Made by a program: the position numbers and the translations under genes
Part shown: one piece after another, positions 4,164 through 27,000 of the stretch
How positions within the stretch are numbered: the stretch's first letter is position 1
How the letters are laid out: the number at the start of each line of letters is the position of its first letter
The notes under the pieces: model-generated
Seen by the model: the letters and a program-made list of their open reading frames with translations, nothing else
Told to the model about the DNA's origin: nothing
The model's database searches: none
Origin: an uncultured Eubacterium sp.
GTDB taxonomy: Bacteria; Bacillota; Clostridia; Lachnospirales; Lachnospiraceae
Length of the DNA: 64,000 nt
Direction of reading: 5' to 3'
Assembly (NCBI GenBank): GCA_947564835.1
Contig: CANOET010000001.1
Location: forward strand, 8,667-72,666

Positions 4164-5144
4164 CTAAATATTATAGATATCCGTTTTATAATGATCCATA
4201 TGTTCCCTGAGCCATGCAATCGTTTCCTGAATCCCCTGTGCAAAAGTATATTGCTGCTTCCAGTCTGTGAGCGCTTTTATTTTCTCATTAGAACCAAGCA
4301 GGCGGTTAACCTCGCTTTTCTCCGGACGCAGACGCTGTTCTTCACATACAATGCTGGCATTAGGGTTAATCTGGGAAATAATCTCCTTTGCCAGATCACC
4401 GATCGAAATCTCCTGCTGCGTTGCGATATTAATTTCTTCCCCAACCGTCCGGTCTGATTCCGCAATAGCGATAAAGCCTGCCGCCGTATCTTTTACATAA
4501 TTGAAATCTCTGGTCGGCGTCAGGGAACCTAATTTGATCTCCTCTTTACCTGCCAGCAGCTGCGTAATAATTGTCGGAATCACTGCCCTGGCTGACTGTC
4601 TTGGGCCATAGGTGTTGAACGGACGCACAATAGATACCGGAAGCCCGAAGCTGCGGTAAAAGCTCTCCGCCAGGCGGTCTGCTCCGATTTTCGTTGCGGA
4701 GTATGGAGACTGGCCCTGGAATGGATGATGTTCATCGATCGGAACATATTGTGCGGTACCGTAGACTTCTGAGGTGGATGTTACAAGTACACGCTGCAGA
4801 TCCAGATCCCTGGCCGCCTGCAGGACATTTAACGTGCCTTTGATATTGGTATCCACATAGGAATCCGGGGAATGGTAGCTGAATGGGATGGCTATAAGAG
4901 CTGCCAGATGGAAAACAGCATCTGTGCCTTTTAGCGCCGTGCGTACGCCGTTCGGGTCGCGGATATCTCCGGTAAATACTTCGATCTGGTCCAGCTTTTC
5001 CTTTGGAAGCGTGTCCAGCCAGCCCCAGGTGTTGAAGGAATTGTAGTAGGCAAATGCCTTTACTTCGTAACCTTTTGCCAAAAGGCTTTCTGTGAGGTGG
5101 CTTCCGATGAAGCCGTCGGCTCCGGTAACTAATACTTTTTTCAT
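4164..5144 (-). CDS. legB: NAD-dependent nucleotide-sugar 4,6-dehydratase (LegB)
   Basis: TGADGFIGSH Rossmann motif, HLAALIAIPFSY, YSATK, RPFNTYGPRQS typical of LegB. Confidence 0.9.
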   Translation of the reverse strand: MKKVLVTGADGFIGSHLTESLLAKGYEVKAFAYYNSFNTWGWLDTLPKEKLDQIEVFTGDIRDPNGVRTALKGTDAVFHLAALIAIPFSYHSPDSYVDTNIKGTLNVLQAARDLDLQRVLVTSTSEVYGTAQYVPIDEHHPFQGQSPYSATKIGADRLAESFYRSFGLPVSIVRPFNTYGPRQSARAVIPTIITQLLAGKEEIKLGSLTPTRDFNYVKDTAAGFIAIAESDRTVGEEINIATQQEISIGDLAKEIISQINPNASIVCEEQRLRPEKSEVNRLLGSNEKIKALTDWKQQYTFAQGIQETIAWLREHMDHYKTDIYNI

Positions 5145-6797: not shown

Positions 6798-6889
6798 TAT
6801 CTACACAATGAATGATATCATTATTGTTGAAAAATTTGTCATCACATGATAAACTATTTATAAATAATATAGAAAAGAGATGCATCAAT

Positions 6890-9177: not shown

Positions 9178-9257
9178 TTCGACACCTACTTTGCATAATC
9201 AAATTTTATACTATATTAGCATATTTTTGAACAATCAGCAATCACCTGGCTAAAATA
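8500..9257. repeat. Direct repeat A: neuA plus 3' remnant of the GT-D gene
   Basis: Matches ~10656-11414 (offset ~2156); ~8735-9153 appears identical by eye; includes tatttttgaa-aatcagcaat-acctggctaaaata from the GT-D 3' end. Confidence 0.9.
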
Positions 9258-10024: not shown

Positions 10025-10594
10025 TCATCTTATATTTTCTAATATAGTATTATCTTTGACACAATATATTGTTTCTATTCCAAAAACCATATCTAATTTT
10101 TGAGCAAACTCAATTGCATGTTCGTATAATGGCTGAACTCTTTGTCTAAAATGTCCAATCACGAGTTTCTTTTGAAATGTTTGAGTATAATATGCTATAA
10201 ACATTGCCCTCAACTGTATAATTCTTTCGTGTTCATCATTAATATCCTGAATGTGAACCTCTTTCCCAGATAAAATCCGAGAAACAAATTCTTCAAAATT
10301 ACAAAGATCTTTATGTACGCGCATATCAAATATTTTTTCTTTATCAATATCTATAATATCAGCAAAAATAACTGCAGATTGTATCTTTTTTCCCGTCATC
10401 TCCTTTATTTGCCTGCACTTTCTGTCCGCCGCCCACCATGCCTTTGCTTTTATATCATAAAAATACACTCCTTCTCCACACCAATTCCCATCAGCCTTAC
10501 TCAAAACAAACCCATTTTTCTTTATTTTATTAGCAGAAATCACATCTGTTCCATGACACAGATCCCTAAATGTCTCTGTATACATCTTTAGCAT
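10025..10594 (-). CDS. ADP-ribosyltransferase-like toxin (CmdT-like)
   Basis: CHGTD...GF...WCGEGVYFY pattern of H-Y clade ARTs; start may be ATG 10585. Confidence 0.7.
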   Translation of the reverse strand: MLKMYTETFRDLCHGTDVISANKIKKNGFVLSKADGNWCGEGVYFYDIKAKAWWAADRKCRQIKEMTGKKIQSAVIFADIIDIDKEKIFDMRVHKDLCNFEEFVSRILSGKEVHIQDINDEHERIIQLRAMFIAYYTQTFQKKLVIGHFRQRVQPLYEHAIEFAQKLDMVFGIETIYCVKDNTILENIR

Positions 10595-10643: not shown

Positions 10644-11333
10644 TTATCCCTTAATTTGATTCATATACGTCTCTACCATTAAAAAATCAACCATATTATC
10701 AATATCCACAGAACGTTCATTCGGCATTATATAAGCATAGGAATCTTTATCATACAAATTTCCATGTTTCATCAGAAATGCCACATTTACCAAATAAATC
10801 GCCCCATTAATCCTATAATAAACAGGCAGCTGCTGTCTTGGCCGTTCATATTCCGGACTCTGAAATGCCTTCATATTTCCATCCTCCGGTAATGTATTGC
10901 ACCATAACGGTGTATGCTCCATCTCACATACACCAATTACTGCCTCTGCATTTTTTTCCTCTATCAAAGAAAATGCATTTTGAATATCCCCTGCCGTACG
11001 CAAGGGGGAGGTCGGCTGCAAGAGCATCACACGATCAAATTTCTGCCCCATTTTTTCATATTTGCATAGCACATCCCGCACCGCATCCCAACAATCGGCT
11101 GAGTCTGATGCCAATTCTTCCTCTCTTAAAAACGGTACCTCTGCTCCATATTCTTTTGCAATCTGTGCATATTCTTCACTATCCGTAGAAACATGGATAC
11201 AGTCAAAGCATTCTGACATGTGTGCCGCTTCTATGGAATATGCCATTAATGGTTTTCCGTGTAATCGTTTTATATTTTTATCCTTTAATCCCTTAGATCC
11301 GCTTCTGGCAGTTATAACTGCTATGTTCTTCAT
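10644..11333 (-). CDS. neuA: CMP-nonulosonate synthetase, copy 2
   Basis: Near-identical to 8485-9177; same motifs. Confidence 0.93.
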   Translation of the reverse strand: MKNIAVITARSGSKGLKDKNIKRLHGKPLMAYSIEAAHMSECFDCIHVSTDSEEYAQIAKEYGAEVPFLREEELASDSADCWDAVRDVLCKYEKMGQKFDRVMLLQPTSPLRTAGDIQNAFSLIEEKNAEAVIGVCEMEHTPLWCNTLPEDGNMKAFQSPEYERPRQQLPVYYRINGAIYLVNVAFLMKHGNLYDKDSYAYIMPNERSVDIDNMVDFLMVETYMNQIKG

Positions 11334-11414
11334 TTCAACACCTACTTTACATGATCACCTTCCGAGACTATATTATCATATTTTTGAAAAATCAGCAATA
11401 ACCTGGCTAAAATA
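10656..11414. repeat. Direct repeat B: neuA plus 3' end of the intact GT-D gene
   Basis: Partner of 8500-9257. Confidence 0.9.
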
Positions 11415-12434
11415 TTCTTTATCTTCGATTGCTTTCGGATTTTCTCCCCCTGCAATCTCATTATTATATTTTCCCTCAACAGCTGTCCGCCGCCCTTCTC
11501 CTTTTAAAAACCACTCATATTCCAAATCAATATGCCCAATATCAACGGCCTGGAAACCTGCCTGAAACAGATCATAGGCAAGCACTGAAGCCGTAGGACC
11601 CAAGGCCAGCAAAAACAATCTGTCTTTTGGCTGTTTCAAAGAAAAATCCAGGATCTGATTGTATCTGAAAAATGCATTCTCTGCTGGCGCCAATATACGT
11701 TGAATCGATTTTGCATTCATAAATAACTGGTTTCCAACACCCATCCCTGTCTTGCTGCCTTCTACAAAAATACAATCCCTGCCATCCCATATCTGCCTGA
11801 TTTGCTGAAACCGTTCTGCGGGAGCATTCGTCTGATGATCAGCATACATGACATAAGGGCGCGTAATATATGCATGATAATAAATTCGTTCTTTCTTTAA
11901 TAGATTTAAATGCTCTCTGCGCACACCCCTTGTCATATAATGCCGAATTTCTCTTTTTGCCTGTGCTGTATATTGTTCCAGACTGCCATAATTATCAGCA
12001 ATTGCAATCAGCATGTTCTCCTCATTAGAATCTAATACTGCCTTTAACCGCTTTGCTAGCTGTTCATCATTTACCGTTTGGAACTTGTGGCGGATGCGGC
12101 CCTGGATTGCTGCAAATTCTCCGTCACCAAACCGGGCAATTGACGCATGGTTAAGAAGCAGCCGATGCATTGTTTCTTCTCTTGATACAATCTGTGGATA
12201 CCAAAATTCTTCTGGCTCCTTGATATTTCGGTAATCCATAATCTCGAAATATATATTATCTCTATAATGTTCTATATCATCCAGCGTATCATCCATCCAT
12301 TCTGTAAACTTCCTCTGCGACTTTACTAAAATCTGATTTGCTTTCTCTAATGAAATGATACGCTGTTGCATATTTTCTGAAATTGCTGCTAATTGTAAAA
12401 ATTGGTTGTACAATTGCTGTTCCTGCTCATTCAT
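11376..12434 (-). CDS. GT-D fold (DUF1792) glycosyltransferase with N-terminal coiled coil
   Basis: SIARFGDGEF, LALGPTASVLAYDL, DIGHIDLEYEW motifs. Confidence 0.85.
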   Translation of the reverse strand: MNEQEQQLYNQFLQLAAISENMQQRIISLEKANQILVKSQRKFTEWMDDTLDDIEHYRDNIYFEIMDYRNIKEPEEFWYPQIVSREETMHRLLLNHASIARFGDGEFAAIQGRIRHKFQTVNDEQLAKRLKAVLDSNEENMLIAIADNYGSLEQYTAQAKREIRHYMTRGVRREHLNLLKKERIYYHAYITRPYVMYADHQTNAPAERFQQIRQIWDGRDCIFVEGSKTGMGVGNQLFMNAKSIQRILAPAENAFFRYNQILDFSLKQPKDRLFLLALGPTASVLAYDLFQAGFQAVDIGHIDLEYEWFLKGEGRRTAVEGKYNNEIAGGENPKAIEDKEYFSQVIADFSKI

Positions 12435-12527: not shown

Positions 12528-14411
12528 TTACTCATTGATTGACTCCCTTTTACTAAATATTTCAGTTGCATACTCTTCAAATGCATCAGAAAGCTTCTTA
12601 ACATTTTCCATATAAATTATGCCTTTTCTTGCAATCTCCTTACCTTCCTTCTGCAATGTATCCTCTGACAGGAACTGTTCATTACTTAATATATAGTTAG
12701 CGTTTGACATTGTCATATTCACAAGCTGGTATACGTCCATCTGTGTGATTTCCTTAATTCCTTTTCTTAACTTTTTCATAACTGACAAATATTCCTGCTG
12801 ATTGATATTTTTTTTCGAGCATAATCGATTTAATTTATGATATTGCTTTTTCATTTTATTCGCCCGCAAAGATAATGTATGAAAATCCTCAGATAGATTC
12901 AGCAAATAATTTTCCGCCCACTTGTATTCTTCTTCTGATAACATTGGCTTCAAATCTTTGATACGTTTTGCAATATCAGCTTCTTTTGTACATACCTTAT
13001 GAATCGCGTCCTTTAAAGTCATGATCTCGGTTCCCTTTATTTTGGCGCCACCCTCGGTAGCATTAATAACGCAAAACTGTTCTCCTCTGTTTTTCTTATG
13101 TTCCGTACATCCCTGAATATATTGCTCATACCATTTAATAAATATTTGAAAGGAATAAGGAGCTGGAACTTTATCTTCGCAATTTCCCTCAACCATGATA
13201 TAATTGCTTGTATCACATTCTTCCATTACTTCCTGAAAGGTACCGTCCGCATGCGATCTGTTATTTGTAAAAGCAAGATCCTGCCCTACTAATATAATTG
13301 TTGTAATACCTATCATATACATAAAAGAAAAAGCGCTTGTTGCCACAGACCCTCCTGTTGCAACTCCTCCTATTATCTGACCGGATTTCTGGAAAATCCT
13401 GTCAGCAAACTGATAACCTTGATTATAAAAAATTTTCATGCCTGTATGATAATCTAATACCTCACTCGCTGCGCTTAAAGATGTAAGCAAAGGTATCTCT
13501 TTTACACCTTCAGCTTCAAATAGGCTTAACGGTTTCATCCCATCAATCATCGCTATCATATGCGGCACGATACCTTCTCGCAATAAAGGCTTCACCGCCG
13601 TATCAACTGCTATTATAAACGACTTTCCCTGCGCTTCTTTAAGATCCTTGATATTTTTATTGAGTGAAGGTCCTGCCGCCACTAATATTCCAGGCACATC
13701 CTTTGGTACAAGATTAATTAATTGTGTTGTTTTATATCCTTTGCACAAATATCTCGCATTAGATAATAAGTTCTTCACCATCACTTTTGAAAAAATGATA
13801 TTCGTATTATATTGTACCGCTTCTTCTGCGGCAGCATCGCGGCAGATACGCATAAAATCAACCGCTTCCTTCTCAAATAGAATTTCATAATTCGGTAAAA
13901 TGAAATACTTCACATATACAAGCATCTCATAAATCAATGTTTTTTTTATCACTGGCTGCAATTTTTGCAGTCCCATTTCCTCTAATCCATTCACCCAAAA
14001 TATAATTAAATGTTTTTCCATCCATCGCTCCAAATCTGCCATTTCTAAAAATTTCAAGAATATCTGTAAGGATGGTTCATATACTATAATAGTAATTTTA
14101 TTTTCTGTCTGTTCCGCAAGCTCTTTTAAATAGGAAGGATTTCCTGTTCCCATCATAATAATGGGAGTATTCTGCTGCAGTTCACCCAATGCATCTCTCC
14201 AAAGCAAAGCCGATTCTTTACTGTTGCGTTTTCCATTTAAATAATACATCTTTCCATTTTGCCGTATTCTTAGAATACGGCCTCCATCGTCTGCTGTTTC
14301 TTCTATAATTTCAAAATCTGGCTTAAGTTCTTTTCTCCCTTTTTCAATTAATTCATCAAACTTATCATAATATTTTGAAAGTACCTTTAAGTTTTTCTCA
14401 TATTGCGTCAC
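12528..14411 (-). CDS. maf: Motility-associated factor (Maf/DUF115, MptE-like) flagellin glycosyltransferase
   Basis: LVAAGPSLNKN, IAVDTA, GGSVA, LVGQDLAF, INATEGGAKIKG motifs; immediately downstream of flagellin. Confidence 0.88.
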   Translation of the reverse strand: MTQYEKNLKVLSKYYDKFDELIEKGRKELKPDFEIIEETADDGGRILRIRQNGKMYYLNGKRNSKESALLWRDALGELQQNTPIIMMGTGNPSYLKELAEQTENKITIIVYEPSLQIFLKFLEMADLERWMEKHLIIFWVNGLEEMGLQKLQPVIKKTLIYEMLVYVKYFILPNYEILFEKEAVDFMRICRDAAAEEAVQYNTNIIFSKVMVKNLLSNARYLCKGYKTTQLINLVPKDVPGILVAAGPSLNKNIKDLKEAQGKSFIIAVDTAVKPLLREGIVPHMIAMIDGMKPLSLFEAEGVKEIPLLTSLSAASEVLDYHTGMKIFYNQGYQFADRIFQKSGQIIGGVATGGSVATSAFSFMYMIGITTIILVGQDLAFTNNRSHADGTFQEVMEECDTSNYIMVEGNCEDKVPAPYSFQIFIKWYEQYIQGCTEHKKNRGEQFCVINATEGGAKIKGTEIMTLKDAIHKVCTKEADIAKRIKDLKPMLSEEEYKWAENYLLNLSEDFHTLSLRANKMKKQYHKLNRLCSKKNINQQEYLSVMKKLRKGIKEITQMDVYQLVNMTMSNANYILSNEQFLSEDTLQKEGKEIARKGIIYMENVKKLSDAFEEYATEIFSKRESINE

Positions 14412-14736
14412 TTTCCTTCTCCTCCTCTTCCGGACTACAAAACATTTTCAAATACTCCAAAATACCATATGCCAATGCATCGTTCATCAGTACCATATCA
14501 TTCTGTTCCGCTGCTTCCAGCATATCCTTTAAACTATTCAACAAGTCTCTGCACATCATCACATATACTTCTTCTTCTATGCCTAACGGATTTTTTTTCA
14601 GAAACCATGTTACAAACTCCTGGATTGCAGCTATATTTTTATAGGTCTTTTTTATAATGCTCCGATCTTGATAGATCATAAATGCTGCTGTATCATTTCT
14701 CAACGTTTTATATAATTCCTTAATCTTAGTATCCAC
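14398..14736 (-). CDS. Small helical protein coupled to maf, unknown function
   Basis: 112 aa, GTG start with AGGAG RBS, overlaps maf start; NDMVLMNDALAYGIL motif. Confidence 0.7.
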   Translation of the reverse strand: MDTKIKELYKTLRNDTAAFMIYQDRSIIKKTYKNIAAIQEFVTWFLKKNPLGIEEEVYVMMCRDLLNSLKDMLEAAEQNDMVLMNDALAYGILEYLKMFCSPEEEEKESDAI

Positions 14737-14760
14737 ACTTCTCTCCTAATTTAATTTATA

Positions 14761-14789
14761 AAAAAGAGCTGGCATTGCCAGCTCTTTTT
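14761..14789. terminator. Intrinsic terminator of the flagellin gene (symmetric)
   Basis: aaaaagagctggca-t-tgccagctcttttt perfect inverted repeat with T-runs. Confidence 0.85.
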
Positions 14790-14828
14790 ATAAATAATGA
14801 TCTGTACGAAGTACAGCTTAACATCATC

Positions 14829-16040
14829 TTACTGCAGTAACGATAATACACCCTGCGTAGATTGATTTGACTGTGCAAGCATAGATTGCCCTGCCTGTGC
14901 AAGAATATTATTCTTACTGTACTCAACCATTTCAGAAGCCATATCTGTATCACGAATACGAGACTCTGCTGACTGTGTATTTTCTGCTACATTATCCAAA
15001 TTAGCAATTGTATGCTCTAATCTATTCTGTAAAGCACCAAGTGCGGAACGCTGTGATGAAACTTTGTTAATCGCATTCTGTACAGCAGTAATTGTTGCAT
15101 TTGCTTCCGCATAACTATTTACTTCCGGTTTTGCTAATGTAAAACTCTCACCACTTGTTGCAACTGTTGGACTCTTGCCTGTAACCTCTGTCGTCTCGGC
15201 GTAAGTAATGAAGCTAGATAGAGTACCTAAATCAGTAGACACATTGCTTTTTGCAGCCGAAACATCTGCTGCCATAGCTTGAGAAGCTGTTGAATATTGA
15301 GAGCCTGCTGCATCTATAAAGAAAATACTTGTACCAGAAATCTGCTGTGCATAGTCATCCTCTGATGCCTGCTTATCAATAGAATCCTTAATCTGAGCTA
15401 TCGCTGCATCCTGATTCGCTGATAATGCCTTCGAGTCATCATACTGATAAGTATGCCCATTATAAGTCACTGTAGAAATTTCTTTACCTTTCTGAACATC
15501 GCCCTGCTTCATACCCTTAATGCTTCTTAAACCTAATGTCGCAGCATCCATATTATTAATACTGATCGTAATCTTCTGATTTGCATTTGCTCCAACCTGG
15601 AGATTCTTGCTGTCAAAAGTACCGTCTAACAGATTCTGTTTATTGAACTGTGTAGTAGTAGAAATTCTGTCAAGCTCCTGTGTCAAAGCATCTAACTCTT
15701 CATTAATCGCATCACGGTCAATGTTTTCATTTGTATCGTTAGCGCCCTGAACTGCTAATTCATTCATTCTCTGAAGGATGGAATGAGCTTCATTTAAAGC
15801 ACCTTCTGCTGTCTGAATAAGAGATACGCCGTCCTGTGCATTTGTTGAAGCTTTATTTAAGCCACGAACCTGACTTCTCATTTTTTCAGAAATCTTTAAA
15901 CCAGCAGCATCATCGCCTGCACGATTGATTCTGTAACCAGAAGATAATTTTTCTGAAGATTTAGACTGTGCGCCTGTTGTAACGCCTAACTGACGGTTAG
16001 CATTCATTGCTGTAAGATTATGCTGTACTACCATTGCCAT
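14829..16040 (-). CDS. fliC: Flagellin (major)
   Basis: MAMVVQHNLTAMNANR...LSSGYRINRAGDDAAGL N-terminus; ESRIRDTDMASEMVEYSKNNIL...VLSLLQ C-terminus; AAGGAGG RBS. Confidence 0.97.
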   Translation of the reverse strand: MAMVVQHNLTAMNANRQLGVTTGAQSKSSEKLSSGYRINRAGDDAAGLKISEKMRSQVRGLNKASTNAQDGVSLIQTAEGALNEAHSILQRMNELAVQGANDTNENIDRDAINEELDALTQELDRISTTTQFNKQNLLDGTFDSKNLQVGANANQKITISINNMDAATLGLRSIKGMKQGDVQKGKEISTVTYNGHTYQYDDSKALSANQDAAIAQIKDSIDKQASEDDYAQQISGTSIFFIDAAGSQYSTASQAMAADVSAAKSNVSTDLGTLSSFITYAETTEVTGKSPTVATSGESFTLAKPEVNSYAEANATITAVQNAINKVSSQRSALGALQNRLEHTIANLDNVAENTQSAESRIRDTDMASEMVEYSKNNILAQAGQSMLAQSNQSTQGVLSLLQ

Positions 16041-16063
16041 AATAATTTCCTCCTTGAATATAC

Positions 16064-16081
16064 TGCATCTTCCATGATGCA
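16064..16081 (-). promoter_or_regulatory. CsrA-binding hairpin in the flagellin 5' UTR
   Basis: mRNA UGCAUC-AUGGAA-GAUGCA: 6-bp stem with ANGGA loop, just upstream of the SD; csrA and fliW are in the window. Confidence 0.75.
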
Positions 16082-16177
16082 AACGATAATTTTTATGTTG
16101 CTGACAGAATCTCTATCGGCCGTACGCTCCTAATGGAAACCCTGCCCTTTTAAGTAATGTTGCTTTACTTGTATTAT

Positions 16178-16204
16178 ATATCGGATGAACATTTGGATAC
16201 TTTA
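16178..16204 (-). promoter_or_regulatory. sigma28 (FliA/SigD) promoter of flagellin
   Basis: TAAA-N15-TCCGATAT on the minus strand. Confidence 0.85.
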
Positions 16205-16247
16205 TAGCCATTTTTAAAATTTTTCATCTCTTTCATCTCGGAGGCAT

Positions 16248-17646
16248 TTAAGTCTGACGGAATCCGCGGAACGCCGTATTTCTGTTAAAATACAGGTCTG
16301 CACATACTGCCTCCATATTTTTTGACTGCACTTCCTGATATTTCTTAATCAGCTTCATATTCGTCCGATAGAGGGCGCGATATACCTCATCATCGGTATG
16401 CCGCGTAAAATTCACAGCTATCAGGTCAGAATTCAGATGTTTATTCTCATAAAAATCTTCCACACCTTCCAGCAGATGATGCTCCACCGCATAATCAAAC
16501 AATTCGCTTCCAGGATACGGCGTCACCGGACGAATCGTTCTCAGCTGTGCATGGTTATCATATTTCAGTAAAAATTCTACAGCATCATCCAATGCACTAA
16601 GTGGTTCATTAATGTTTCCAAAGATAATATTCAGCCCCGGGCTAATACCTACTTCTAAGGTATTTTCTACACCCCGGATAATCATATCACGGTTTAATCC
16701 TTTATGCATCACTCTTAACGTATCATTATCCAATGATTCTATACCATAATTAACAAACACGCATCCTGCATCTTTCATTTTTTGCAGCACTTCTATATCC
16801 GCAAAATTGAGTCTGCCATTACAGTCCCATTTCACATCTAAATCCGCATCTATAAATGCCTGACAGAGCTCCAAGGTACGATCCTTTGAGCTCATCAACA
16901 ATTCATCTGAAAAAGTGATAAACTTAATATTATATTCTTTTTTTAAAAATTGTATTTCGTCTATAATACTCTGCGCACTTCTCGGACGAAATCCTTTGTC
17001 CAAGCGATAACAAAAATTACACCTAAAAATACATCCTCTCCCCGAAAGAACAGGCATCCAACGCTCACGATTCGTTATATGTGGTACACGCAGCAATGGA
17101 TAAAAAGTCATATCAAATAAATCATACGCAGGCCATGAAATCTGATCAATATTTTTAATTAGTTCTCTTGGTTTTGTCCTGATATAATTTCCGTCTGAAT
17201 CTAAAAATGCAATTCCATCAACTGATTCAAGCGCACCCCCCCCTCTTAAAAGCGTCCAACAGTTCAACAAACGTAATCTCGCCTTCACCAATCCCGACAA
17301 CATCTGCTCCGGTTTTCCTCAAAAAATACTCCGGCGCCGCAGCCGGACCATGTCCGCCAATTGTATATTTAAAATTCTTTCTGTTTTTAGAAGCATTAAT
17401 CGCTTCTGACAAAGATAACAATTTCCGATATTGATAATACCCTCCGATAATACTGATCTCAACCACATCAAAATCATGATTGTCCAGGTATTCCGTTAAA
17501 TGACAATCCGGCCAATGATAAATATCCTGCTGATAAACACAGACCTCATGCCCTGCATCTCTGGCCGCAGCGGCTAAATAAGCAAGCCCTTGCGGAAACC
17601 ATGCTATGTAGGAATCATTGTCATAAACCACCATCAATATTTTCAT
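16248..17646 (-). pseudogene. B12-binding radical SAM enzyme split by a frameshift in a G8 tract (phase-variable OFF, or sequencing error)
   Basis: N-part (PQGLAYLAA, GGHGP, GEGE) and C-part (SGRGCIFRCNFC, GIES) in different frames; junction at C8 run 17236-17243; G7 gives a continuous ...DAFKRGGALESVDG... Confidence 0.85.
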
Positions 17647-17697
17647 ATATTCTTCCTTCCTTTCTTTCATAAACTGACGTAATCAGCAAAGAAGGCT

Positions 17698-18366
17698 TTA
17701 AAGTTCTATTTCCTTCAGCACACGGAATGCTTCTGCATACTCCACATTGCATGCTGCCGCCCGATACTTTGCCAACCCACGGATCGCCTGCTCGTTCCTC
17801 GGGAAAGGCGATTCCTTAATTTCATTCTTATACTCTTTCATAATTGCAATCTTTTCTTCCAGGTAACCACTGATATCTACATAATAATTTGGAACGTACC
17901 CCCCCCCACACATTTCCGGAGCATAATCTGTTTCCGAGATAATTTCCATACACAAAATTTTTGTCACACTCGGATAACGGAATGACTTCGTGCTTGAATA
18001 TGCAGCTTCAAATACGATCTTATGGTCAGAATGCACGTCATTCGAATAAGGCAGAATTACAATATCAGGCTGAATCCTTCTTACTTCGCCTGAAAACATT
18101 TGCACCAATTCAGACGTTCTATATCGGTCAAGCCCCGCTGGTTCCAGCTGCAGATCTATGTATTCTTTCATCCGATACCTTGCGGCAACTCTTTCTATTT
18201 CTTCTCTGCCCTGACTTTCCTCCTCTTTCGTATACCCGTACTCTTCTTTTACATTCGTCACATTCAGCCAGTACAGTTCATCGCCTGCATCTGCATGTTT
18301 TAACAAAAACCCTCCCGCTCCCAATGTTTCATCATCTGTGTGCGGAGAAACAACCAGTATTTTCAT
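17698..18366 (-). CDS. PIG-L/LmbE-family N-deacetylase with in-frame G9 tract
   Basis: SPHTDDETLG, DVHSDH motifs; C9 run at 17899-17907 encodes GGG. Confidence 0.88.
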   Translation of the reverse strand: MKILVVSPHTDDETLGAGGFLLKHADAGDELYWLNVTNVKEEYGYTKEEESQGREEIERVAARYRMKEYIDLQLEPAGLDRYRTSELVQMFSGEVRRIQPDIVILPYSNDVHSDHKIVFEAAYSSTKSFRYPSVTKILCMEIISETDYAPEMCGGGYVPNYYVDISGYLEEKIAIMKEYKNEIKESPFPRNEQAIRGLAKYRAAACNVEYAEAFRVLKEIEL

Positions 18367-19268
18367 GATAAATATTCTCCTTCCGTTAGAACAATCCGGT
18401 CACAATCTGTAATATGCACTAATTCATCATACGCTTTGACATAAAAATCTGTCTCTGAAACTACTTTTATCACCTTGCCCGGTTCTATATGTTGATATTT
18501 CTGCCCATCTAACCTTTCTGTACGCCACACTTTATATATTCTGTCTTTATGAGTAAAATGCGCACCTATATAGGGATGACTTAATGCTCTGACCAGATTA
18601 TAAATAGCTGCTCCCGACATTCGCCAATCAATTAAGCCATCTTTCTCCCCCCTCTTTCGCCAGGCATTCCCAGCTGCCGCCTCCTGTTTTCTCTTTACAC
18701 AAGATCCTTGCTCAAGAGCAGAAGTAAATTCCAAAATCTGCTCACATTCAGCTTTTGTAATCTTATCGTACAGATCCCTTGCATAATCCGTATCTTCAAT
18801 TTTAATCGTTCTCTGTGAAATAATGTCGCCCGTATCAGCATTTTCATCCATAACAAAAAAAGTAGATGCTGTATATTTCAGCCCCAATACCAAAGCCCAT
18901 ATAATTGGATGTCTGCCCCGATTGTATGGCAGCTCAGACGGATGTGTGCCTATTACACCCAGCGGCGGAATATCCAGGATTTCTTTTTTGATTAGCTGAG
19001 ACCATCCAAAACAATAGATCACATCTGGCCGACAATTCCTCACATATTCAACTGTATCCGCATCATTTATATTCTTCGTGTATTTACAGCTAATCCTATA
19101 CTGATCCGCCAGCGGTTTTAAATCCACAAAATCTGCATTAAATTTTGAGGCTTCTTTCGTAACAACTCCTACAACATCCTTTTTATGTTCCAGCAATAAC
19201 TTTAATTCCAGATAAGATGATTCTACGCACCCCACAAATATGATCCGCATATGATCTACCTCTTCCAT
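18363..19268 (-). CDS. N-formyltransferase (Fmt-like, sugar/amine formyltransferase)
   Basis: GTHPSELPYNRGRHP, DENADTGDII motifs plus Fmt C-terminal domain. Confidence 0.85.
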   Translation of the reverse strand: MEEVDHMRIIFVGCVESSYLELKLLLEHKKDVVGVVTKEASKFNADFVDLKPLADQYRISCKYTKNINDADTVEYVRNCRPDVIYCFGWSQLIKKEILDIPPLGVIGTHPSELPYNRGRHPIIWALVLGLKYTASTFFVMDENADTGDIISQRTIKIEDTDYARDLYDKITKAECEQILEFTSALEQGSCVKRKQEAAAGNAWRKRGEKDGLIDWRMSGAAIYNLVRALSHPYIGAHFTHKDRIYKVWRTERLDGQKYQHIEPGKVIKVVSETDFYVKAYDELVHITDCDRIVLTEGEYLS

Positions 19269-19295
19269 ATCTTTCTCTCTATAACATGTCCTGCA

Positions 19296-19973
19296 TTACA
19301 ATTTATCTGCATATGCTATAAACAACTCCACGGTAATTCCTCTGTCTGTATACAAATCATAATCTATCTGCACATTTTGGAATCCACTATCCAACAGCAT
19401 TTTTTCCAATGCCTCTTTATCAAAATAATGCGTAATCCCTCTGCCAACCAATGCCCCCTCTGTCATATTCACAAAAGTATCCTTCTCCAACACTTCTCCA
19501 GATCCATATCCATCTGTCTTTTTCCCAAAACACGTTGTGAAAAATTTGCCGCCAGATTTTAGCATTTTATACACATTTTGATACATGACCTGAATATTAG
19601 TTAATAAATTGCTATAGATACATACATTATCTATAACTGCATCAAAAAAGTTATCCGGATAACCTAAATCCAAAGCATCCGACACTTGGAAATGTGCCTC
19701 TAAATGTTCTTTTTCCAGCCGTTGCGTTGCTTTCCTTACAGCACTTTTGGAACCGTCAAAAGCATAAACATCAAATCCTTCCCTGGCTAAATACCATGCA
19801 TGGGCTCCTTCACCACAGCCAAAATCTAAAATCCTAGTTTTTCCCCTATCTAATTTATAATAATTACGTGCAACAAACCGAATCACATGTTCAGTCGGAT
19901 AAATTCCCCATTCCTGTGTACTATGTACATATTCCCATTCTTCATGAAATGACTTCGTAAAACATCCATTCAT
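19296..19973 (-). CDS. Class I SAM-dependent methyltransferase
   Basis: ILDFGCGEG motif I, FDGSKSAV, FDAVID. Confidence 0.88.
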   Translation of the reverse strand: MNGCFTKSFHEEWEYVHSTQEWGIYPTEHVIRFVARNYYKLDRGKTRILDFGCGEGAHAWYLAREGFDVYAFDGSKSAVRKATQRLEKEHLEAHFQVSDALDLGYPDNFFDAVIDNVCIYSNLLTNIQVMYQNVYKMLKSGGKFFTTCFGKKTDGYGSGEVLEKDTFVNMTEGALVGRGITHYFDKEALEKMLLDSGFQNVQIDYDLYTDRGITVELFIAYADKL

Positions 19974-19992
19974 TTCTTAGTTCTCCTTCTTA

Positions 19993-21075
19993 TCAATACC
20001 GATACTGAATATAAAATGAATTATTCTCATTAAAGCCGCTGTCTGTCTCTGCTCTTACCCTCATTAACTGAGCATATTTCTCTTCATCAAAAATACTCCT
20101 CCCTATATAAAACGGAAGCATCCCTGTCTTGTTAAACTTCTTTTTATATCGAAACAAAGAATCCTGATCTGATAATCCTCCGCCAAGATGAAGCTTCTGT
20201 ATTCCATGCTCATTTGCCCATTTCGCAGCTTCTACCATAATAAGATTTTCAAACGGTACATTGGGTGCATTCACATCCCTGCCGCCCAAATGAAAATGCA
20301 TATACCGCTGATCATACAAATATAAAGATGCGCCTACAGCCTTATCGTCCAAATACGCATAAAAAAGAATCAGATGCTCCTGAAAATGGCAGATCAGATA
20401 TTCATAGTATTCTTTTGAAAAAAAATAAAAATCATCTGCCTGATGCATTTCCATGGTAGCATTATATAGACGTATAAAATCATCTATTCTCTCGCCCTGG
20501 TCTGTTACTATCTTTACTCCCGCCTCAGCAGCTTTCCTAATCTTTCTTCTGTATTGTGAATCCAATTGCGCGGTAACCCTGTCTTTATCAGATGTATCCA
20601 TATAAATCGTATTCTTATGCATACCTATTCTGTCAGCAATCAGTGTACTTCTTTTTTCAAACATCAAAGGATAAAAACGTATAAACTGTGTAATAATTCC
20701 TTCATTTCTGCATAGCTTTTTCAAACTGCTTCGAAAATCAGCCATTATTGCTTCTGTCACCTCAAAATCTCCATAAAACAAAGGCCCACCATATCCATAA
20801 GGAGATTCCGCATCATAAAATATTCCATTCGGAATCACTCCCTGAAACTTTTGATGCAAAGCTATATCCTGTATAATAAGCGCATAAATTAACCCACTAT
20901 CATCACTCCCATAATTGATCAAAACCGGCACACCATTTAAATAATTTGAAATCGAGAATACATATTCATATTGATAATATACATCTGTAATGTCCTTATT
21001 TCTTAAAAATTCTTTCCATTTTTTTTGTTCTTTAATAAACCACAACTGATATTTACACATGACATTTCTCTCCAT
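19993..21075 (-). CDS. GNAT/FemAB-like acyl- or aminoacyl-transferase
   Basis: DAESPYGYGGP, FIRFYP, RRKIRKA, LHLGGG, LFRYKKKF typical of FemAB-like GNATs in glycan clusters. Confidence 0.8.
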   Translation of the reverse strand: MERNVMCKYQLWFIKEQKKWKEFLRNKDITDVYYQYEYVFSISNYLNGVPVLINYGSDDSGLIYALIIQDIALHQKFQGVIPNGIFYDAESPYGYGGPLFYGDFEVTEAIMADFRSSLKKLCRNEGIITQFIRFYPLMFEKRSTLIADRIGMHKNTIYMDTSDKDRVTAQLDSQYRRKIRKAAEAGVKIVTDQGERIDDFIRLYNATMEMHQADDFYFFSKEYYEYLICHFQEHLILFYAYLDDKAVGASLYLYDQRYMHFHLGGRDVNAPNVPFENLIMVEAAKWANEHGIQKLHLGGGLSDQDSLFRYKKKFNKTGMLPFYIGRSIFDEEKYAQLMRVRAETDSGFNENNSFYIQYRY

Positions 21076-21568
21076 ATGCTACGAACTGTTCTATATCATT
21101 CCCCTGATCCGAATACCGGATATGATCTATCTTACACTCTTGAAAACCGCATTTTGTCAGTGTTAGACACAATTCATCCGTTGTTGTAAAATGAATCCGT
21201 CCTACCCCGGATAAATTTACTCTGGTAATACCTTCAAAGGTTCCTGTTTCTCTTTCTTTTCCTAATCCATAGCCAGTTGTTGCATAGCCAAATCCACTAG
21301 ACAGTAGTCTCCCCTCCCCTTAAGAATTTGATGTATCTTTTTATACATCTTTACACAGTCCTCATATTTATTGCAACATATACAGCCCACATCAATAACC
21401 GCATCAAAAAAGTTATCCTCATAAGGCAAATTTAATGCGTCATATACACCTAAATTCGCTGAAAGTCCTTTTCTATTTAGCTTTTGTTCTGTCTTCTTCA
21501 CAGCATCTACTGTCCCACTCAACAGTGCTATGCAGCTCATTCCACCTGGAATCCATCGATTGTTCCAT
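21053..21568 (-). pseudogene. Degraded paralog of the methyltransferase at 19296-19973
   Basis: Three frames align to the intact paralog: MEQSMDSRWNELHSTVEW, then GTVDAVKK...FDAVIDVGCI..., then GRLLSSGFGYATTGYG...FVAYGEK; SAM motif I deleted; second frameshift at GGGGAGGGG (~21311-21320). Confidence 0.8.
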
Positions 21569-21782: not shown

Positions 21783-22790
21783 TCAGACATCTTCCCACAA
21801 AATCTTCTCTTCAACAGCAATATCCCGCTTTAACTCCCTGCCAACTAATATCTCCGCATATTCCGGCCATATACCATCTCCAGGACGCTTATAACAAAAC
21901 ATCTCTTTTGACAAAATTGTCCCCCGCTTTAAATCCTGGTTCGCTAAAATACTGCGGCGAACCTGGTTCATAATATCCTTTTCATGCTCCGTCGGCTTTT
22001 TCCTGCCATCTCCCAAAAGCAGCTCCGCATTTCGTATATGCCTCACATATTCGAGGAACTCTTCCGGCGGCATAGAAGCTTTGTGATCCGGGCCTGGCAG
22101 ATCCCGGTCGAGAGTGATATGCTTTTCTATTACAACTGCACCCATAGCTACTGCGGCAACTGCAGCTTCAAAACCAAGCGTATGATCCGAATAGCCGACT
22201 GGCACATGAAACGCATGCTTTAAAGTCAGCATCGCATTCAGATTCACATTTTCAATCGCCGTAGGGTAATCCGTAGTACAATGCATCAATGTAACATTCA
22301 GATTACCTGTTTTATATATAGTATCAAGCGCTTTCTCAACCTCTCCCAGCGTACTCATTCCCGTAGACAGAATCACTGGCTTGCCAGATTCCGCAATTTC
22401 TTTTAAAAAGGGGGCATTTGTTACCTCTGTGGATCCTATTTTAATCAACGGAACATTTAGCTTCAGCAAATACTGCAGGCTTTCTGTTCCATCCGGTGTG
22501 GAAATAAAATCTATTTCCTTCTCATTACAGTATTTTTGTAATTCCGCAAAATCCTCAAACGGCAGTTCCAGCTTGCGTATCATCTCCAATTGTGTTTCCT
22601 GGGTAGGATCGTTATTTTTTTGGTATGAGGCTTTCTCTGCATGTCTTCCGGTACTCTCTTCCGCTTTAAACGTCTGGAACTTTACCGCATCAGCCCCTGC
22701 ATCCTTTGCCATATCGATCAGCTGTTTCGCAAGCCTGATATCTCCATTATGATTCACACCTGCTTCTGCAATAATATAAGTCTTTTTCAT
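21783..22790 (-). CDS. neuB: Nonulosonic acid synthase (NeuB/LegI)
   Basis: IIAEAGVNHNG, KFQTF, GYSDHT, EKHITLD...GPDH, C-terminal SAF domain. Confidence 0.95.
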   Translation of the reverse strand: MKKTYIIAEAGVNHNGDIRLAKQLIDMAKDAGADAVKFQTFKAEESTGRHAEKASYQKNNDPTQETQLEMIRKLELPFEDFAELQKYCNEKEIDFISTPDGTESLQYLLKLNVPLIKIGSTEVTNAPFLKEIAESGKPVILSTGMSTLGEVEKALDTIYKTGNLNVTLMHCTTDYPTAIENVNLNAMLTLKHAFHVPVGYSDHTLGFEAAVAAVAMGAVVIEKHITLDRDLPGPDHKASMPPEEFLEYVRHIRNAELLLGDGRKKPTEHEKDIMNQVRRSILANQDLKRGTILSKEMFCYKRPGDGIWPEYAEILVGRELKRDIAVEEKILWEDV

Positions 22791-23938
22791 ATCGCTTCTA
22801 CCTTTACTTTATTTTTGTCAATAAACTGTTCGTGCAATATCTCTCGTATTCTCTGCGATGTCCTTCCATCACCCCAATAATACAAATCACCATCAGGCAC
22901 GTCCAACTGTATTGCTTCCAAAACTGCCTTTTGAATACTGTCATAGGTTTCCGTACATGAAATAACATTCGCACACTTATACCTTCCGGACTGCCTGTCT
23001 CCAATATCTACAACAGGCACCTTAAGCATAGGCGCCTCTATAATACCGCTGCTGGAGTTGCCAAGCACAAAACCCACTTGCTTCATATAGCTCAAATACC
23101 TCTGGCTCCCAAGAGAAGCAATCACCTTTATTTTAGACGGATGATCTTTCGCAATCTGCTCAAGCATCTCATTAATATACCTCCCCCCAAAGTCCGCATT
23201 CGCATAGGTGGCAACTACCTGAACCCCTTCCAATTCCAAAAGAACCTTCAAACAATTTTCTACTGCTGCCAAATTAGATGTAAGGCTGTTCAATGTTACT
23301 GCATGATAAGTAAACAAAGCCCACTTTAAATGACAGTCCAGCCCCAGCATGTCCGCCAGCTCCTGCCTGGTATAAAGTGCTTCTCTAAAATATGCATCTA
23401 ACCCGGGTTCACCAACCGTCCAGACATTTTTATCAGAGCCGCGCATACGCACAATATTATCCCTACTTGCCTTTGTTCCCGGAAAATGATAATCTGCCAG
23501 CATCGTAACGGCATTTCTTACTCCATTATCAATCAACCCTTCCGTAACATCGCCGCCTGATAAATGAATAATCGGAATCCTCATAATAAATGCTGTACTG
23601 CAAATTGACAAAAGTTCATAGCGATCCCCCAGAATGACCAAATAATCAGGTTTCAATTTTTCCAAAGCATCTGCAAGTGACTCTGCCATACGGCCCATAG
23701 ATGCTGCTATTGCTGCTTCTGATTTTGTGTCCAACTGCGCATCAACAACCGTATCAATTTGAAATCCATCTTTTATGATCTGGTCTATCGTATGTCCCTG
23801 CTCTTCCAGTAAATGACCTCCTGTTACAATTAATTGAAGTTTAAAATCAGAGCTTTTGGAAATATCATACATCAGCCATTTTAACAGTCCGTATTCAGAT
23901 CTTGCAGCTGTAACAAAACATAATTTTTTCATCTGCAC
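22787..23938 (-). CDS. neuC: Hydrolysing UDP/GDP-GlcNAc 2-epimerase (NeuC/LegG)
   Basis: TAARSEYG, LGDRYE, HLSGGD, GNSSSGIIEAP, IGDRQ motifs. Confidence 0.93.
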   Translation of the reverse strand: MQMKKLCFVTAARSEYGLLKWLMYDISKSSDFKLQLIVTGGHLLEEQGHTIDQIIKDGFQIDTVVDAQLDTKSEAAIAASMGRMAESLADALEKLKPDYLVILGDRYELLSICSTAFIMRIPIIHLSGGDVTEGLIDNGVRNAVTMLADYHFPGTKASRDNIVRMRGSDKNVWTVGEPGLDAYFREALYTRQELADMLGLDCHLKWALFTYHAVTLNSLTSNLAAVENCLKVLLELEGVQVVATYANADFGGRYINEMLEQIAKDHPSKIKVIASLGSQRYLSYMKQVGFVLGNSSSGIIEAPMLKVPVVDIGDRQSGRYKCANVISCTETYDSIQKAVLEAIQLDVPDGDLYYWGDGRTSQRIREILHEQFIDKNKVKVEAI

Positions 23939-24030: not shown

Positions 24031-27000
24031 TCAGAGTCCCTGCAAAAGCTCTAAAACTTGATCCTTATCCCGTTTTCTTTGCGACAGCATAGCCTCAGCC
24101 ACCTGCGTCAGTATAGAAGCAGCCGCATAATCTACTGCTTCTTTCGCCATATCCGCATCACGGATACGGCTCTCAGCAGCTGCCAGATTCTCAGCTGTCT
24201 GGCCCAGGTTTTGTATAATATGCTCTAAACGATTTTGATAAGCCCCATAGGAAGCGCGGATTCTTGAGACTTTTGTAACAGCATTCTGGATCACTGTTAT
24301 CGCATCTCCCGCATTTTCCTCTGTAGAAATATTCAGGCCCTGCATTTCCAAAGCCTTAAGAGAAAAATAAAACCTCGGTATTTCCAGCTTTACTCCAGCA
24401 GTTGCACCGACCTGCAGGATAATTCCTCCATATTTCTTCTTGTCATAACTATTATTCGAATCACCTGGATTTGGTTTCGTAATATATTCCGGCTTTTCCG
24501 CTGGTTTCGGTTTATCCTGCTGCGCAACACGGAATACACCCGCATCTGGATAGAACTTCAAATCAAGCACAGTAGATCCCTGATGGGTTACGCCTGTATC
24601 ATCCGTATAGTCATAAGTAATCGTAAGCTTTTGCTCGTTGTTAGAATTTCCTGTTGGAAGCCAGATAAAAACGTAATTCTCATCTAACGGCTCATGCCGC
24701 AAGTCTGGCGTCCATGGCCCCACCCCACTCTGATCAGATGAAATCTGGATATTACTAATCTTGTCTTTGCTGACACCTGATATCATATCCAATGGCAGCA
24801 GTCCAAAGTTTTCCAGCTGTTTACCTGCATCAAGCACTGCATTGTCTTTAAATAAGTAAACTGGATAAGCATAAACTGGATTGCCATTTTGGTCTTTGGA
24901 ACCAGAAGTACTATACAATCCTTCGCCCGAACTGCCAGGACGCAATGTCGTACCATTTCCAGTTACTGTTATCGTACCCGCGCTATCATCACTATGTGAT
25001 TTGTCTGTATAAGAAAGGATATTGCCTCCATTATGCGTCATGCCGCCAATTGCCGTAACAATTACCTTATTCTCCGGATTATTTATATCTCCAATCGTAA
25101 TATTTCCGCTTGTAGAGCCGCGTCCTGACCCGATACCGGTAGAATCTGTCTTACCTTGGGCTAAAACCGTTCCTTTCTTGATATCGATATCCCCGGTGGA
25201 AGATACCATATCCGTTTCACCACTGTAACCGGATCCGATCCCGACGCCATTCTCTCCGCCGTAAGCCTTAACTTCCCCATTCGTATCGATCACAATATTG
25301 CCAACATGACTGTCATCGTTTCCGGAACCAATACCAGCGCCACTATCACCGCCTCTGGCCTCATCAATAACAGCGTCTCCTGATATTTCAATATCTCCGC
25401 ACTCACCAAGCCAGGAAGCCCCAATCCCGGCTCCATCATCGCCGCCTTTTGCACTGATAATATGTGCATCACCGTTAATCGTAATTTTCCCGCTATTGCC
25501 CTGACATCCCGCACCGATACCGGTTCCATGCATCGTACTGGATGCAGTAATATCCCCGCCGGATATGGTAATCGTTCCGTTCGTGGCTGTCGATGTCCAG
25601 CCGCCTCCGATACCTGCTCCGTGTTCATTGCTGGATGCATCTACCGTACCATCGGTGATCAAAATATCGCCAACCTTTGCACCATATGCACCACCGATAC
25701 CTGCGCCGCCGGAACCGCCTTTTGCTGTGATGTTTCCTCCTGAAATGTTTATATCGCCAAACTCCGCCCGATTTCCGGCGCCGATACCAGCTCCATATCT
25801 CCCGCCGGTCGCCTTGATTTCCCCGCTCCTGATTTCTATACTGCTATTTGCCGCATTACTATTATTACTGCAGCCAATACCTGCACCATTTGTCCCACCG
25901 GTCGCTTCCAGCTTGCCTGACCCTAATAAGCCATATTCATTTTCCACAACCAGGCTGGTATTCTCCCCGACACGTATCCCGGCAGCATTATTGCCGCTTT
26001 GAAACTGATTATTTTGTCCGTCTTTCAGCTGTAAAGTAACCTGATTCCCGTTTCCAAGATCCAATGCGCATCCTGACGCAGGCTTGCATGTTACCCCATC
26101 CAGCAAAATATTCACATCTGCTCCCAGCTGATCATCCAGCCTGATGCTGCCATTGATATCGCCGCCATTCACTCCTGAAATCGTGCCGCCGGATATCGTG
26201 TAATTCCCTGCCTGCTTGATCACTAATTTTTCGCCTTCATAGACATAGTCCGTCCCCTCCTGTGCGGCAGCTCCATTCTTTAGCACCTGAAACGGGCCAA
26301 CCCACTCAAAGCCAGGATTCGCTGCTGTAGGATCAAATTTCGCCAGCAAGGTCTGGGATACACCGTCAGCGTCTGTAACCGTAACCTTATGCAGCGTTGA
26401 CTGCGAAGAGAGCGCATCTGCCGTCATCCACAATGTCGCCTTCTCACCATTGCCGATAACCATATCAGACTTCACACCATCAAAACTGATCGATACAACA
26501 TCAGCTGTTAATCCGCCAAGCTTATCCGTCCAAGGCAGATCAATCGCATACAAAGCCTCACCTGAAGAATTTTTCTGCGGTGCCGGCAAGTCAGCTGTAA
26601 CAGAGGCATTGTCTATTTCGATATCTGATGCAACTATCTGCCCGCTGCCATTTGTTCCGACCGAAACAGCCCCTCCATGAAACCGGACCGTATTTGTTTG
26701 ATCACTTGTAAAATCTCCCGTCTCCAGCCTGCCAGTACCGTTAAATGTAACATCCGTACCATTGTCCAGTGTAATGCCTCCCAGTTCGCTAACCCCGGTA
26801 TATGTAATCTCTGTATCCGTCTTTACAGTAAGCGCATCTGCTGCATCAAGATTTAAGTTATTTAATGTAACCTTTCCGGTACCCTGCAATACGATTTTGC
26901 CGTTTGACGGTGAAGTCAGCCCATCTTTTAATGAGATCTGCACATCACTGTTTCCGCTGACCGTCAGTGTTTGAGTAACCGCATCGTAGGTGACATCGCC

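Follow-up and report, generated by a model that had tools for sequence, protein, structure and literature searches.

Does a frameshifted gene beside a flagellin gene in a gut bacterium represent decay, a sequencing error or a switch? The gene in question encodes a radical S-adenosylmethionine (SAM) protein with a B12-binding domain and lies in a 64,000-nucleotide stretch of DNA (hereafter the window) of contig CANOET010000001.1, from an uncultured Eubacterium sp. of the family Lachnospiraceae (assembly GCA_947564835.1). A first-pass annotation of the window had described a G8 tract (C8 on the plus strand at 17236-17243) that splits this gene, and had proposed a phase-variable tailoring of the flagellar glycan; both the position of the tract and the description of the gene agree with what we find. 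We consider it probable, taking the explanation as a whole, that the tract is a slippage-driven ON/OFF contingency locus in a radical-SAM gene that tailors a legionaminic-acid-type sugar of flagellin. The gene and its parts are:

16248..17646, minus strand: radical-SAM gene with B12-binding domain, 465 aa when the tract is G7, frameshifted in the window (Pfam, homologues, AlphaFold model)
17236..17243, minus strand: poly-G tract, G8 on the coding strand (the OFF length), in frame at G7 or G10; codons and residues 135-138
17227..17646, minus strand: N-terminal fragment made at G8, 139 aa, B12-binding-like domain only (identical to protein P0133, 31 contigs)
16248..17235, minus strand: C-terminal part, shifted to the +1 frame with respect to the start, radical-SAM core with CxxxCxxC (P0121, 340 aa; P0124, 346 aa)

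The minus strand reads ...GCTTTTAAGA-GGGGGGGG-TGCGCTTGAA... across the tract, where GGGGGGGG is the G8 run. Translation from the ATG at 17646, which is preceded by AAAGGAAGGAAG, runs for 139 codons and stops at a TGA (17227-17229) two codons past the tract, and the remaining protein is read in the +1 frame down to 16248. Gene callers place the beginning of this C-terminal part at a TTG or ATG in frame, but nothing supports true initiation there. When one G is deleted (G7) a single open frame of 465 aa results, as compared to the ~466 aa estimated by the first-pass annotation, and with G10 the frame is 466 aa. The G8 tract is the sole lesion in the gene, as had also been claimed, and the tract length by itself toggles between a full-length (G7, 465 aa) and a truncated product (G8, 139 aa). 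The G7 product is identical letter for letter to a protein found on 16 public contigs (P0123), and also to P0127, and over its full length it can be aligned with more than 100 homologues, of which most have 465 aa. In an AlphaFold model (predicted local distance difference test score 87.5) the tract falls in the loop that follows the last helix of the N-terminal Rossmann/B12-like domain, between the two domains of the enzyme. This stretch is variable across the radical-SAM family (consensus A-G-K-R-S), and such a position should tolerate an extra glycine.

To see whether the tract varies, lengths were taken from assembled public contigs (ENA, Logan), and they are therefore consensus lengths that compare one sample with another. 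Ten independent metagenome contigs (L081-L090, from at least four studies) match the window over 4.8-7.4 kb within positions 13001-21100. When these were aligned with the window only eight columns varied: one in the radical-SAM tract, three in a tract of the adjacent PIG-L gene and four single-nucleotide polymorphisms (SNPs) in flagellin. The radical-SAM tract is G7 in six of the loci (L081-L086) and G8 in the other four (L087-L090) as well as in the window. Length changes amid almost no substitutions show that insertion or deletion is far commoner than base substitution in this DNA. Thus the tract length, whose possible invariance the first-pass annotation had raised, does vary, with G7 and G8 found in independent assemblies of otherwise identical DNA. 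The split products are themselves recurrent, as the C-terminal (P0121/P0124) and N-terminal (P0133/P0134) parts occur on 23-31 contigs, and contigs retrieved through the neighbouring formyltransferase gene carried a split radical-SAM gene in 22 of 23 cases, together with a PIG-L product of 222, 178, 162 or 179 aa. Assembly coverage reaches ~80x for G8 (NODE_453, 81.7; NODE_344, 79.5) and ~18x for G7, and G7 was reported both by a SPAdes-style ENA assembly and by Logan assemblies. This recurrence at coverage, and the presence of G7 in both types of assembly, make a miscall very unlikely. An exact-flank scan of Joint Genome Institute (JGI) metagenome contigs for further tract lengths gave no matches. 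It is very likely that the tract is a genuine ON/OFF polymorphism generated by slippage.

The adjacent gene of the same strand carries a tract of its own:

17899..17907, minus strand: second poly-G tract, G9 (ON in the window), in the PIG-L gene, encoding GGG at residues 153-155; G7, G8, G9 or G10 in other assemblies
17698..18366, minus strand: PIG-L family de-N-acetylase, 222 aa, intact in the window (Pfam)

In assemblies where this second tract is G7, G8 or G10 the PIG-L product is cut to 162-179 aa. Its length (G7-G10) varies independently of the radical-SAM tract, and all four ON/OFF combinations of the two genes were found; the window as sequenced has the radical-SAM gene OFF and the deacetylase ON.

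Are these two tracts a local peculiarity or part of a wider pattern? All G/C runs were counted in the genome assembly (4.12 Mb in 385 contigs), and we regard this run-length spectrum as a stronger test of over-representation than shuffling of the window. There are 3083 runs of length 5, 211 of length 6, 23 of length 7, 21 of length 8, 43 of length 9 and 13 of length 10, and A/T runs fall monotonically with length. The raw census is inflated, since 56 of the 107 G/C runs of at least 7 lie within a GC-rich, REP-like family of intergenic repeats; when the repeats were removed the bimodality stayed. The non-repeat runs of lengths 5 to 13 number 2489, 134, 7, 8, 29, 6, 2, 1 and 1, a bimodal distribution with its mode at 9, and G9 makes up 29 of the 54 non-repeat tracts of at least 7 (54%). 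This genome-wide spectrum shows selection for G9-type tracts. Thirty of the 54 lie inside open reading frames (ORFs) of at least 180 aa, a few of which may be spurious, and in 24 of these 30 the G is on the coding strand, 15 being in frame (ON) and nine out of frame (OFF). The products of tract-bearing genes include two further radical-SAM proteins, FkbM, TylF and class I methyltransferases, GT2 and GT8 glycosyltransferases, acyl-modifying enzymes (Acyl_transf_3, MBOAT, AlgX/DHHW, GDSL), a sulfotransferase, a GH26 surface enzyme and an Eco57I/MmeI-type restriction-modification enzyme. The first-pass annotation had likened the locus to Campylobacter contingency genes, and this likeness extends to the genome as a whole: the mode is 9, the G is on the coding strand, and glycan and restriction-modification genes are affected.

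A polysaccharide locus on contig C5 served as control and was compared in nine contigs and the genome. Here the tract of a GT2 gene ranges from G7 to G10, that of an acyltransferase is G7 or G8 and that of a sulfotransferase G9 to G11. All combinations are present, also inside the ERZ134104xx assembly series alone, with four SNPs in 8.9 kb. The same kind of tract is common in the genus, as the genomes of all 21 other species have 7-382 G9 matches each, and in other genera of the family and order 17 of 19 genomes have five matches or fewer.

Loss of mismatch repair was considered as a source of the tracts and ruled out, as MutS (1047 bits) and MutL are present in the genome and in nearly all its relatives. 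Two congeners appear to have split mismatch-repair genes: in G001 (L091, contig C35) there is a frameshift in mutS, and in G014 (L092, C1:1557000-1563100) mutS holds a transposase-like insertion of ~1.4 kb and mutL a frameshift. Phase-variable mutS/mutL was rejected for both genomes, because there is no homopolymer at the breaks and one has the transposase-like insertion; these may be mutator lineages or assembly errors.

The relatives of the two genes show how such tracts come and go. Among 22 species of the genus only the window genome carries the radical-SAM gene, and the orthologues compared here come from other Lachnospiraceae metagenome-assembled genomes (MAGs). The radical-SAM allele of a sister strain (P0122; identity 93% at the amino-acid and 87% at the nucleotide level) is free of a tract and reads TCT GGA AAC CGG ACG (SGNRT) where the window reads AAG AGG GGG GGT GCG (KRGGA). 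The sister-strain PIG-L gene has its tract at the same site as in the window, with lengths of G9, G9, G8 and G7 in four samples, and locus L004 has G10 at the PIG-L site. Two Lachnospiraceae MAG orthologues (L001, L002) carry G9 near residue 92 (NRKRGGVKY), and near residue 150 there is G10 in L010 (DKTGGGYIK) and G13 in L014 (KYGGGGELF). The comparison suggests at least three independent origins of poly-G in one gene family, and tracts at three different sites argue for repeated selection of its switchability.

Several observations weigh against a reversible, selected switch. Among the contigs seen, those with G8 are confined to the ERZ134104xx series and its derived genome and those with G7 to other studies (ERZ12802917 and the Logan runs), so that just two lengths of the radical-SAM tract were seen and these are partitioned by study, a pattern that one fixed slippage event would explain equally well. 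Within the ERZ134104xx series the PIG-L and C5 tracts do vary, and the radical-SAM tract is then either less mutable or kept OFF by selection. G7 and G8 are at the low end of the tract lengths that switch efficiently in Campylobacter, and MutS and MutL are both in place. In a dinucleotide-shuffle test limited to the window, three overlapping G8 matches were found as compared to a mean of 1.02, and 14 of 100 shuffles reached three, which is not significant. Concerning the chemistry, the methylation named by the first-pass annotation is only one option, the closest solved relative being a sugar diol dehydratase. With these points counted, we lean slightly towards reversible switching at the rates of contingency loci; the G7/G8 tract is probably slower to switch than the G9-G10 tracts of the same genome.

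The main rival to such a switch is plain loss of function, in which a single +1 slippage became fixed in one host cohort and a dispensable gene is decaying without any selection for switching. The partition of two lengths by study fits this, and so does the accessory nature of the gene, present in one of 22 species. However, no second lesion has accumulated, and, judged against the sister allele, many substitutions in five codons were needed to build the tract. Moreover, poly-G was gained at two other sites of the gene family in other lineages, the PIG-L neighbour and dozens of other glycan genes have tracts that demonstrably vary, and the genome-wide spectrum again argues against simple decay. 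We therefore find plain loss unlikely, though it deserves the most attention among the alternatives.

Less probable still is a leaky switch, in which slippage of RNA polymerase or ribosomal frameshifting partly restores the G8 frame, so that G8 would mean low expression rather than OFF. Long homopolymers can make RNA polymerase slip, and as the stop follows the tract by only about two codons, a change of frame there would restore the full-length protein. The data can be explained with no leakage, however; no stimulatory structure or slippery heptamer was noticed, though no search aimed at one was made, and efficient transcriptional slippage is best documented for A/T runs of at least 9. A sequencing or assembly artefact, with a true length of G7 throughout and G8 as a homopolymer miscall, would fit the error-prone nature of homopolymers and an assembly in 385 contigs, but it is very improbable: at least 23 contigs from separate assemblies have G8, with coverage of up to ~80x, and 16 others have G7, with no split by pipeline, SPAdes-style (ENA) and Logan assemblies both giving G7. 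We dismiss as the least credible a split enzyme, in which separate synthesis of the B12-like domain (139 aa) and the radical-SAM core (340 aa) is followed by assembly into an active enzyme, since the two overlapping ORFs predicted by gene callers depend on an arbitrary in-frame TTG/ATG that overlaps the upstream ORF, more than 100 homologues are all single chains of ~465 aa, and the break point is a homopolymer of varying length.

If the tract is a switch, what does it act upon? On the minus strand the radical-SAM gene closes a run of closely spaced genes: NeuC/LegG-like, NeuB/LegI-like, FemAB-like, methyltransferase, formyltransferase and PIG-L, then the radical-SAM gene itself. After it come the genes for flagellin, a 112-aa ORF, a Maf-type (MptE-like) transferase, a GT-D glycosyltransferase and the synthetase of a cytidine monophosphate (CMP)-activated sugar, with LegB further on:

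22787..23938, minus strand: NeuC/LegG-type hydrolysing 2-epimerase (TIGR03568, NeuC_NnaA, 382 bits vs. a cut-off of 236)
21783..22790, minus strand: NeuB/LegI-type nonulosonic acid synthase (TIGR03569, NeuB_NnaB, 455 bits vs. a cut-off of 400)
19993..21075, minus strand: FemAB-like / GNAT (Acetyltransf_6) protein, probably an aminoacyl or acyl transferase (Pfam)
19296..19973, minus strand: class I SAM methyltransferase (Pfam)
18363..19268, minus strand: formyltransferase, N- and C-terminal domains (Pfam, NCBIfam)
14829..16040, minus strand: flagellin, 403 aa, presumed glycan acceptor, 208 bp downstream of the radical-SAM gene
12528..14411, minus strand: Maf-type (MptE-like) flagellin nonulosonic-acid glycosyltransferase (PF01973, 134 bits; NCBIfam PseD domain below cut-off)
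11376..12434, minus strand: GT-D fold glycosyltransferase (Pfam, NCBIfam)
10644..11333, minus strand: CMP-nonulosonic acid synthetase (cytidylyltransferase; CTP_transf_3, 92 bits), second copy at 8485-9177
4164..5144, minus strand: LegB-type NAD-dependent 4,6-dehydratase (TIGR04180, 523 bits vs. a cut-off of 475)

The LegB match indicates a pathway of the legionaminic-acid type. By its predicted gene functions the region is a legionaminic-acid-type, Maf-dependent flagellin glycosylation island, with the sugar predicted to sit on flagellin. The flagellin-glycan setting that the first-pass annotation had given to the gene is borne out by the LegB, NeuC/LegG-like, NeuB/LegI-like, CMP-synthetase, Maf and flagellin genes around it.

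The enzyme itself has a B12-binding domain (PF02310, residues 16-130, 58 bits vs. a cut-off of 32) and a radical-SAM domain (PF04055, residues 201-359, 72 bits), and its CxxxCxxC motif is intact (C205, C209, C212) and invariant in 50 homologues. No curated NCBIfam model scored above its cut-off (best HpnJ, 121 bits vs. 578; AprD4 family, 82 vs. 500), and the gene is therefore filed under no curated B12/radical-SAM subfamily (HpnJ, BchE, HpnR, PhpK, AprD4 and others). By sequence and by fold the nearest solved structure is AprD4 (E 3e-21, template modelling score 0.70-0.75), a radical-SAM 1,2-diol dehydratase of apramycin biosynthesis that acts on an aminoglycoside sugar (PDB 6fd2). The next fold matches are the cobalamin-dependent methylases TsrM (6wtf), OxsB (5ul4), MgmA (9ccb), CysS (9n1d) and TokK (7kdy). 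AprD4 and these methylases share the two-domain layout of an N-terminal Rossmann/B12-like domain and a radical-SAM barrel with CxxxCxxC, and AprD4 also acts on an amino sugar. They differ from the window protein in that identity is only ~19-20%, and the partners of the window gene are nonulosonic-acid genes rather than clusters for aminoglycosides or for peptides that are made by ribosomes and modified after translation (RiPPs).

Orthologues with 56-82% identity occur in 80 genomes (L001-L080) of many bacterial phyla and some archaea, and within 4 kb of them there is a CMP-nonulosonic-acid synthetase in 42, NeuC in 40, NeuB in 30, LegB in 20, Maf in 10 and flagellin in 8. From this company we infer that the enzyme carries out a conserved step in the tailoring of a nonulosonic acid of legionaminic type, or of the precursor of such a sugar. 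The predicted reaction could be a cobalamin-dependent C-methylation or an AprD4-like radical dehydration/deoxygenation. The literature search found no paper that combines nonulosonic acid with radical SAM, or flagellin glycosylation with radical SAM and B12, and none on what this family does. Identity stays at 56-65% even across Omnitrophota, Nitrospirota, Desulfobacterota, Planctomycetota and archaeal MAGs, nearly always beside nonulosonic-acid genes, and the family looks like an uncharacterised, widely transferred sugar-tailoring enzyme.

How would the switch work? In the proposed sequence of events, slippage of DNA polymerase on the G run at replication would add or remove one G. G7 yields the full two-domain enzyme, and G8 brings translation to a stop after the N-terminal domain, leaving the catalytic radical-SAM core untranslated. 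Clonal populations would consequently hold G7 and G8 cells at all times, and one of the two could be enriched through selection exerted by host antibodies, TLR5 recognition, phage or motility cost. The enzyme would act on the nonulosonic acid, or on the nucleotide sugar that precedes it, ahead of its transfer by Maf to Ser/Thr of flagellin, and switching would then alter the flagellar glycoform without loss of flagella. We judge it reasonably likely that the state of the tract alters the flagellin glycan.

The closest known parallel is the flagellin glycosylation locus of C. jejuni, where the state of the poly-G gene Cj1295 changes the pseudaminic-acid glycoform (Hitchen et al. 2010, PMC3068675). 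Both cases concern a flagellin glycosylation island of the nonulosonic-acid type in which a tailoring gene contains an intragenic, coding-strand poly-G tract; both also show several adjacent tract genes, and targets among surface glycan and restriction-modification genes. In both, homologues in related strains may be tract-free, and the mode is 9, the 54% of G9 tracts found here being close to the 53% of the Campylobacter phasome (PhasomeIt, PMC6321876). In contrast, Campylobacter is an epsilonproteobacterial pathogen with a pseudaminic pathway, whereas the window host is a Gram-positive Lachnospiraceae commensal with a legionaminic-type pathway (LegB match) and, unlike Campylobacter, with MutS and MutL. 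For Cj1295 both the switching and the glycan change were shown by experiment, whereas the window tract is known from assemblies. We know of no B12-domain radical-SAM gene among the Campylobacter contingency genes.

Clostridia already offer a precedent for phase-variable traits linked to the flagellum. The flagellar switch of Clostridioides difficile is an invertible DNA element upstream of the flagellar operon that turns flagella and toxin on or off; it works by site-specific DNA inversion, in contrast to a homopolymer frameshift inside a glycan-tailoring gene. A Gram-positive gut commensal with an intragenic G tract is Bifidobacterium breve, in which replication slippage switches sortase-dependent pili, a surface appendage, ON or OFF (Penno et al. 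2022, PMC9187656). B. breve belongs to the Actinomycetota, and its tract is in a structural or assembly gene of the pilus rather than in that of a glycan-tailoring enzyme. The proof of its switch came from deep sequencing with error correction and from enrichment in vivo, whereas the window tract is known by consensus differences between samples. The literature search found no report of homopolymer switches in Lachnospiraceae or in this radical-SAM family. The mechanism is a classical homopolymer contingency locus, and what is new is probably the Lachnospiraceae host and the radical-SAM enzyme family.

Lachnospiraceae flagellins are major commensal antigens and TLR5 ligands in the gut. If true, a stochastic switch of their sugar coat would give antigenically mixed populations, with possible effects on immune recognition, colonisation and the adsorption of phages. 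For gut Clostridia, discussion of phase variation has so far dealt mainly with DNA inversion, and switching by homopolymers has been a trait typical of Campylobacter, Helicobacter, Neisseria and Haemophilus; a mismatch-repair-proficient Gram-positive commensal genus whose glycan genes contain dozens of poly-G tracts of varying length would widen this picture. More tentatively, a whole genus of gut Lachnospiraceae, with related lineages, may possess a poly-G phasome like that of Campylobacter although its mismatch repair is intact, and may use it to switch surface and flagellar glycans in many combinations; the radical-SAM family, widespread and conserved beside nonulosonic-acid genes from Bacillota to Omnitrophota and archaea, may carry out a new radical modification (C-methylation or deoxygenation) of legionaminic-type sugars whose ON/OFF state changes how TLR5, anti-flagellin immunoglobulins A and G (IgA/IgG) or flagellotropic phages see the flagella. 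This larger proposal is possible but, taken in full, rather doubtful. In practical terms, such "pseudogenes" in MAGs should not be thrown out as errors, and the natural G7/G8 pair offers isogenic material for identifying the product of the radical-SAM enzyme.

Some further features of the window and the genome were seen. The four flagellin SNPs (positions 15244, 15293, 15398 and 15428) are all nonsynonymous (A205P, A215T, S250A and N266S) and lie in the central, surface-exposed part of the protein. Among the near-clonal assemblies they are the only substitutions in 5-7 kb, and by three of the four a Ser/Thr that could be O-glycosylated is gained or lost. The pattern hints either at diversifying selection or at gene exchange with flagellin paralogues. 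There are two copies of the CMP-nonulosonic-acid synthetase gene (8485-9177 and 10644-11333), which lie 2156 bp apart around two small unrelated ORFs (9350-9730 and 10025-10594). Direct repeats accompany the duplication (8504-8803 / 10660-10959, 90%; 9210-9257 / 11367-11414), which has the look of a recombination scar or of an insertion that duplicated its target. A 92-aa methyltransferase remnant (21262-21540, minus strand; weak Methyltransf_11/25/31 matches) sits between the genes for NeuB and the FemAB-like protein and is probably a decayed tailoring gene. A giant flagellin-like protein of 1583 aa is encoded at 24031-28782 (minus strand); it has normal flagellin N- and C-terminal segments and a huge Gly-rich, repeat-rich central insert with a zinc-protease-like HExxH motif (AHEMIH). 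The glycosylation/flagellin region is broken up by AT-rich (30-34% GC) cassettes on the opposite strand (5217-8388 and 29893-32637), whose composition looks foreign.

Elsewhere in the genome, the REP-like repeats have units such as GGCTAACCGGACGACTCTGCGGGCTG, often with a G7-G12 run before them (e.g. C10:149, C21:14236-14280, C54:17382-17453). They lie ~100 bp from many contig ends and thus account for fragmentation of the assembly there. On the 3.3-kb contig C351 there are four G9 tracts (47, 965, 1530 and 2119), each at the N-terminus (xGGGTKELE) of one of a set of paralogous proteins that are Ala/Asn-rich and have no Pfam match; these could be a phase-variable family of surface or tail-fibre-like proteins. 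Finally, the C9/G9 tract at C50:17454-17462 lies at or just upstream of the start of a gene for a ~1000-aa restriction-modification enzyme of Eco57I/MmeI type (type IIG), which is a candidate phase-variable, phasevarion-like restriction-modification system.

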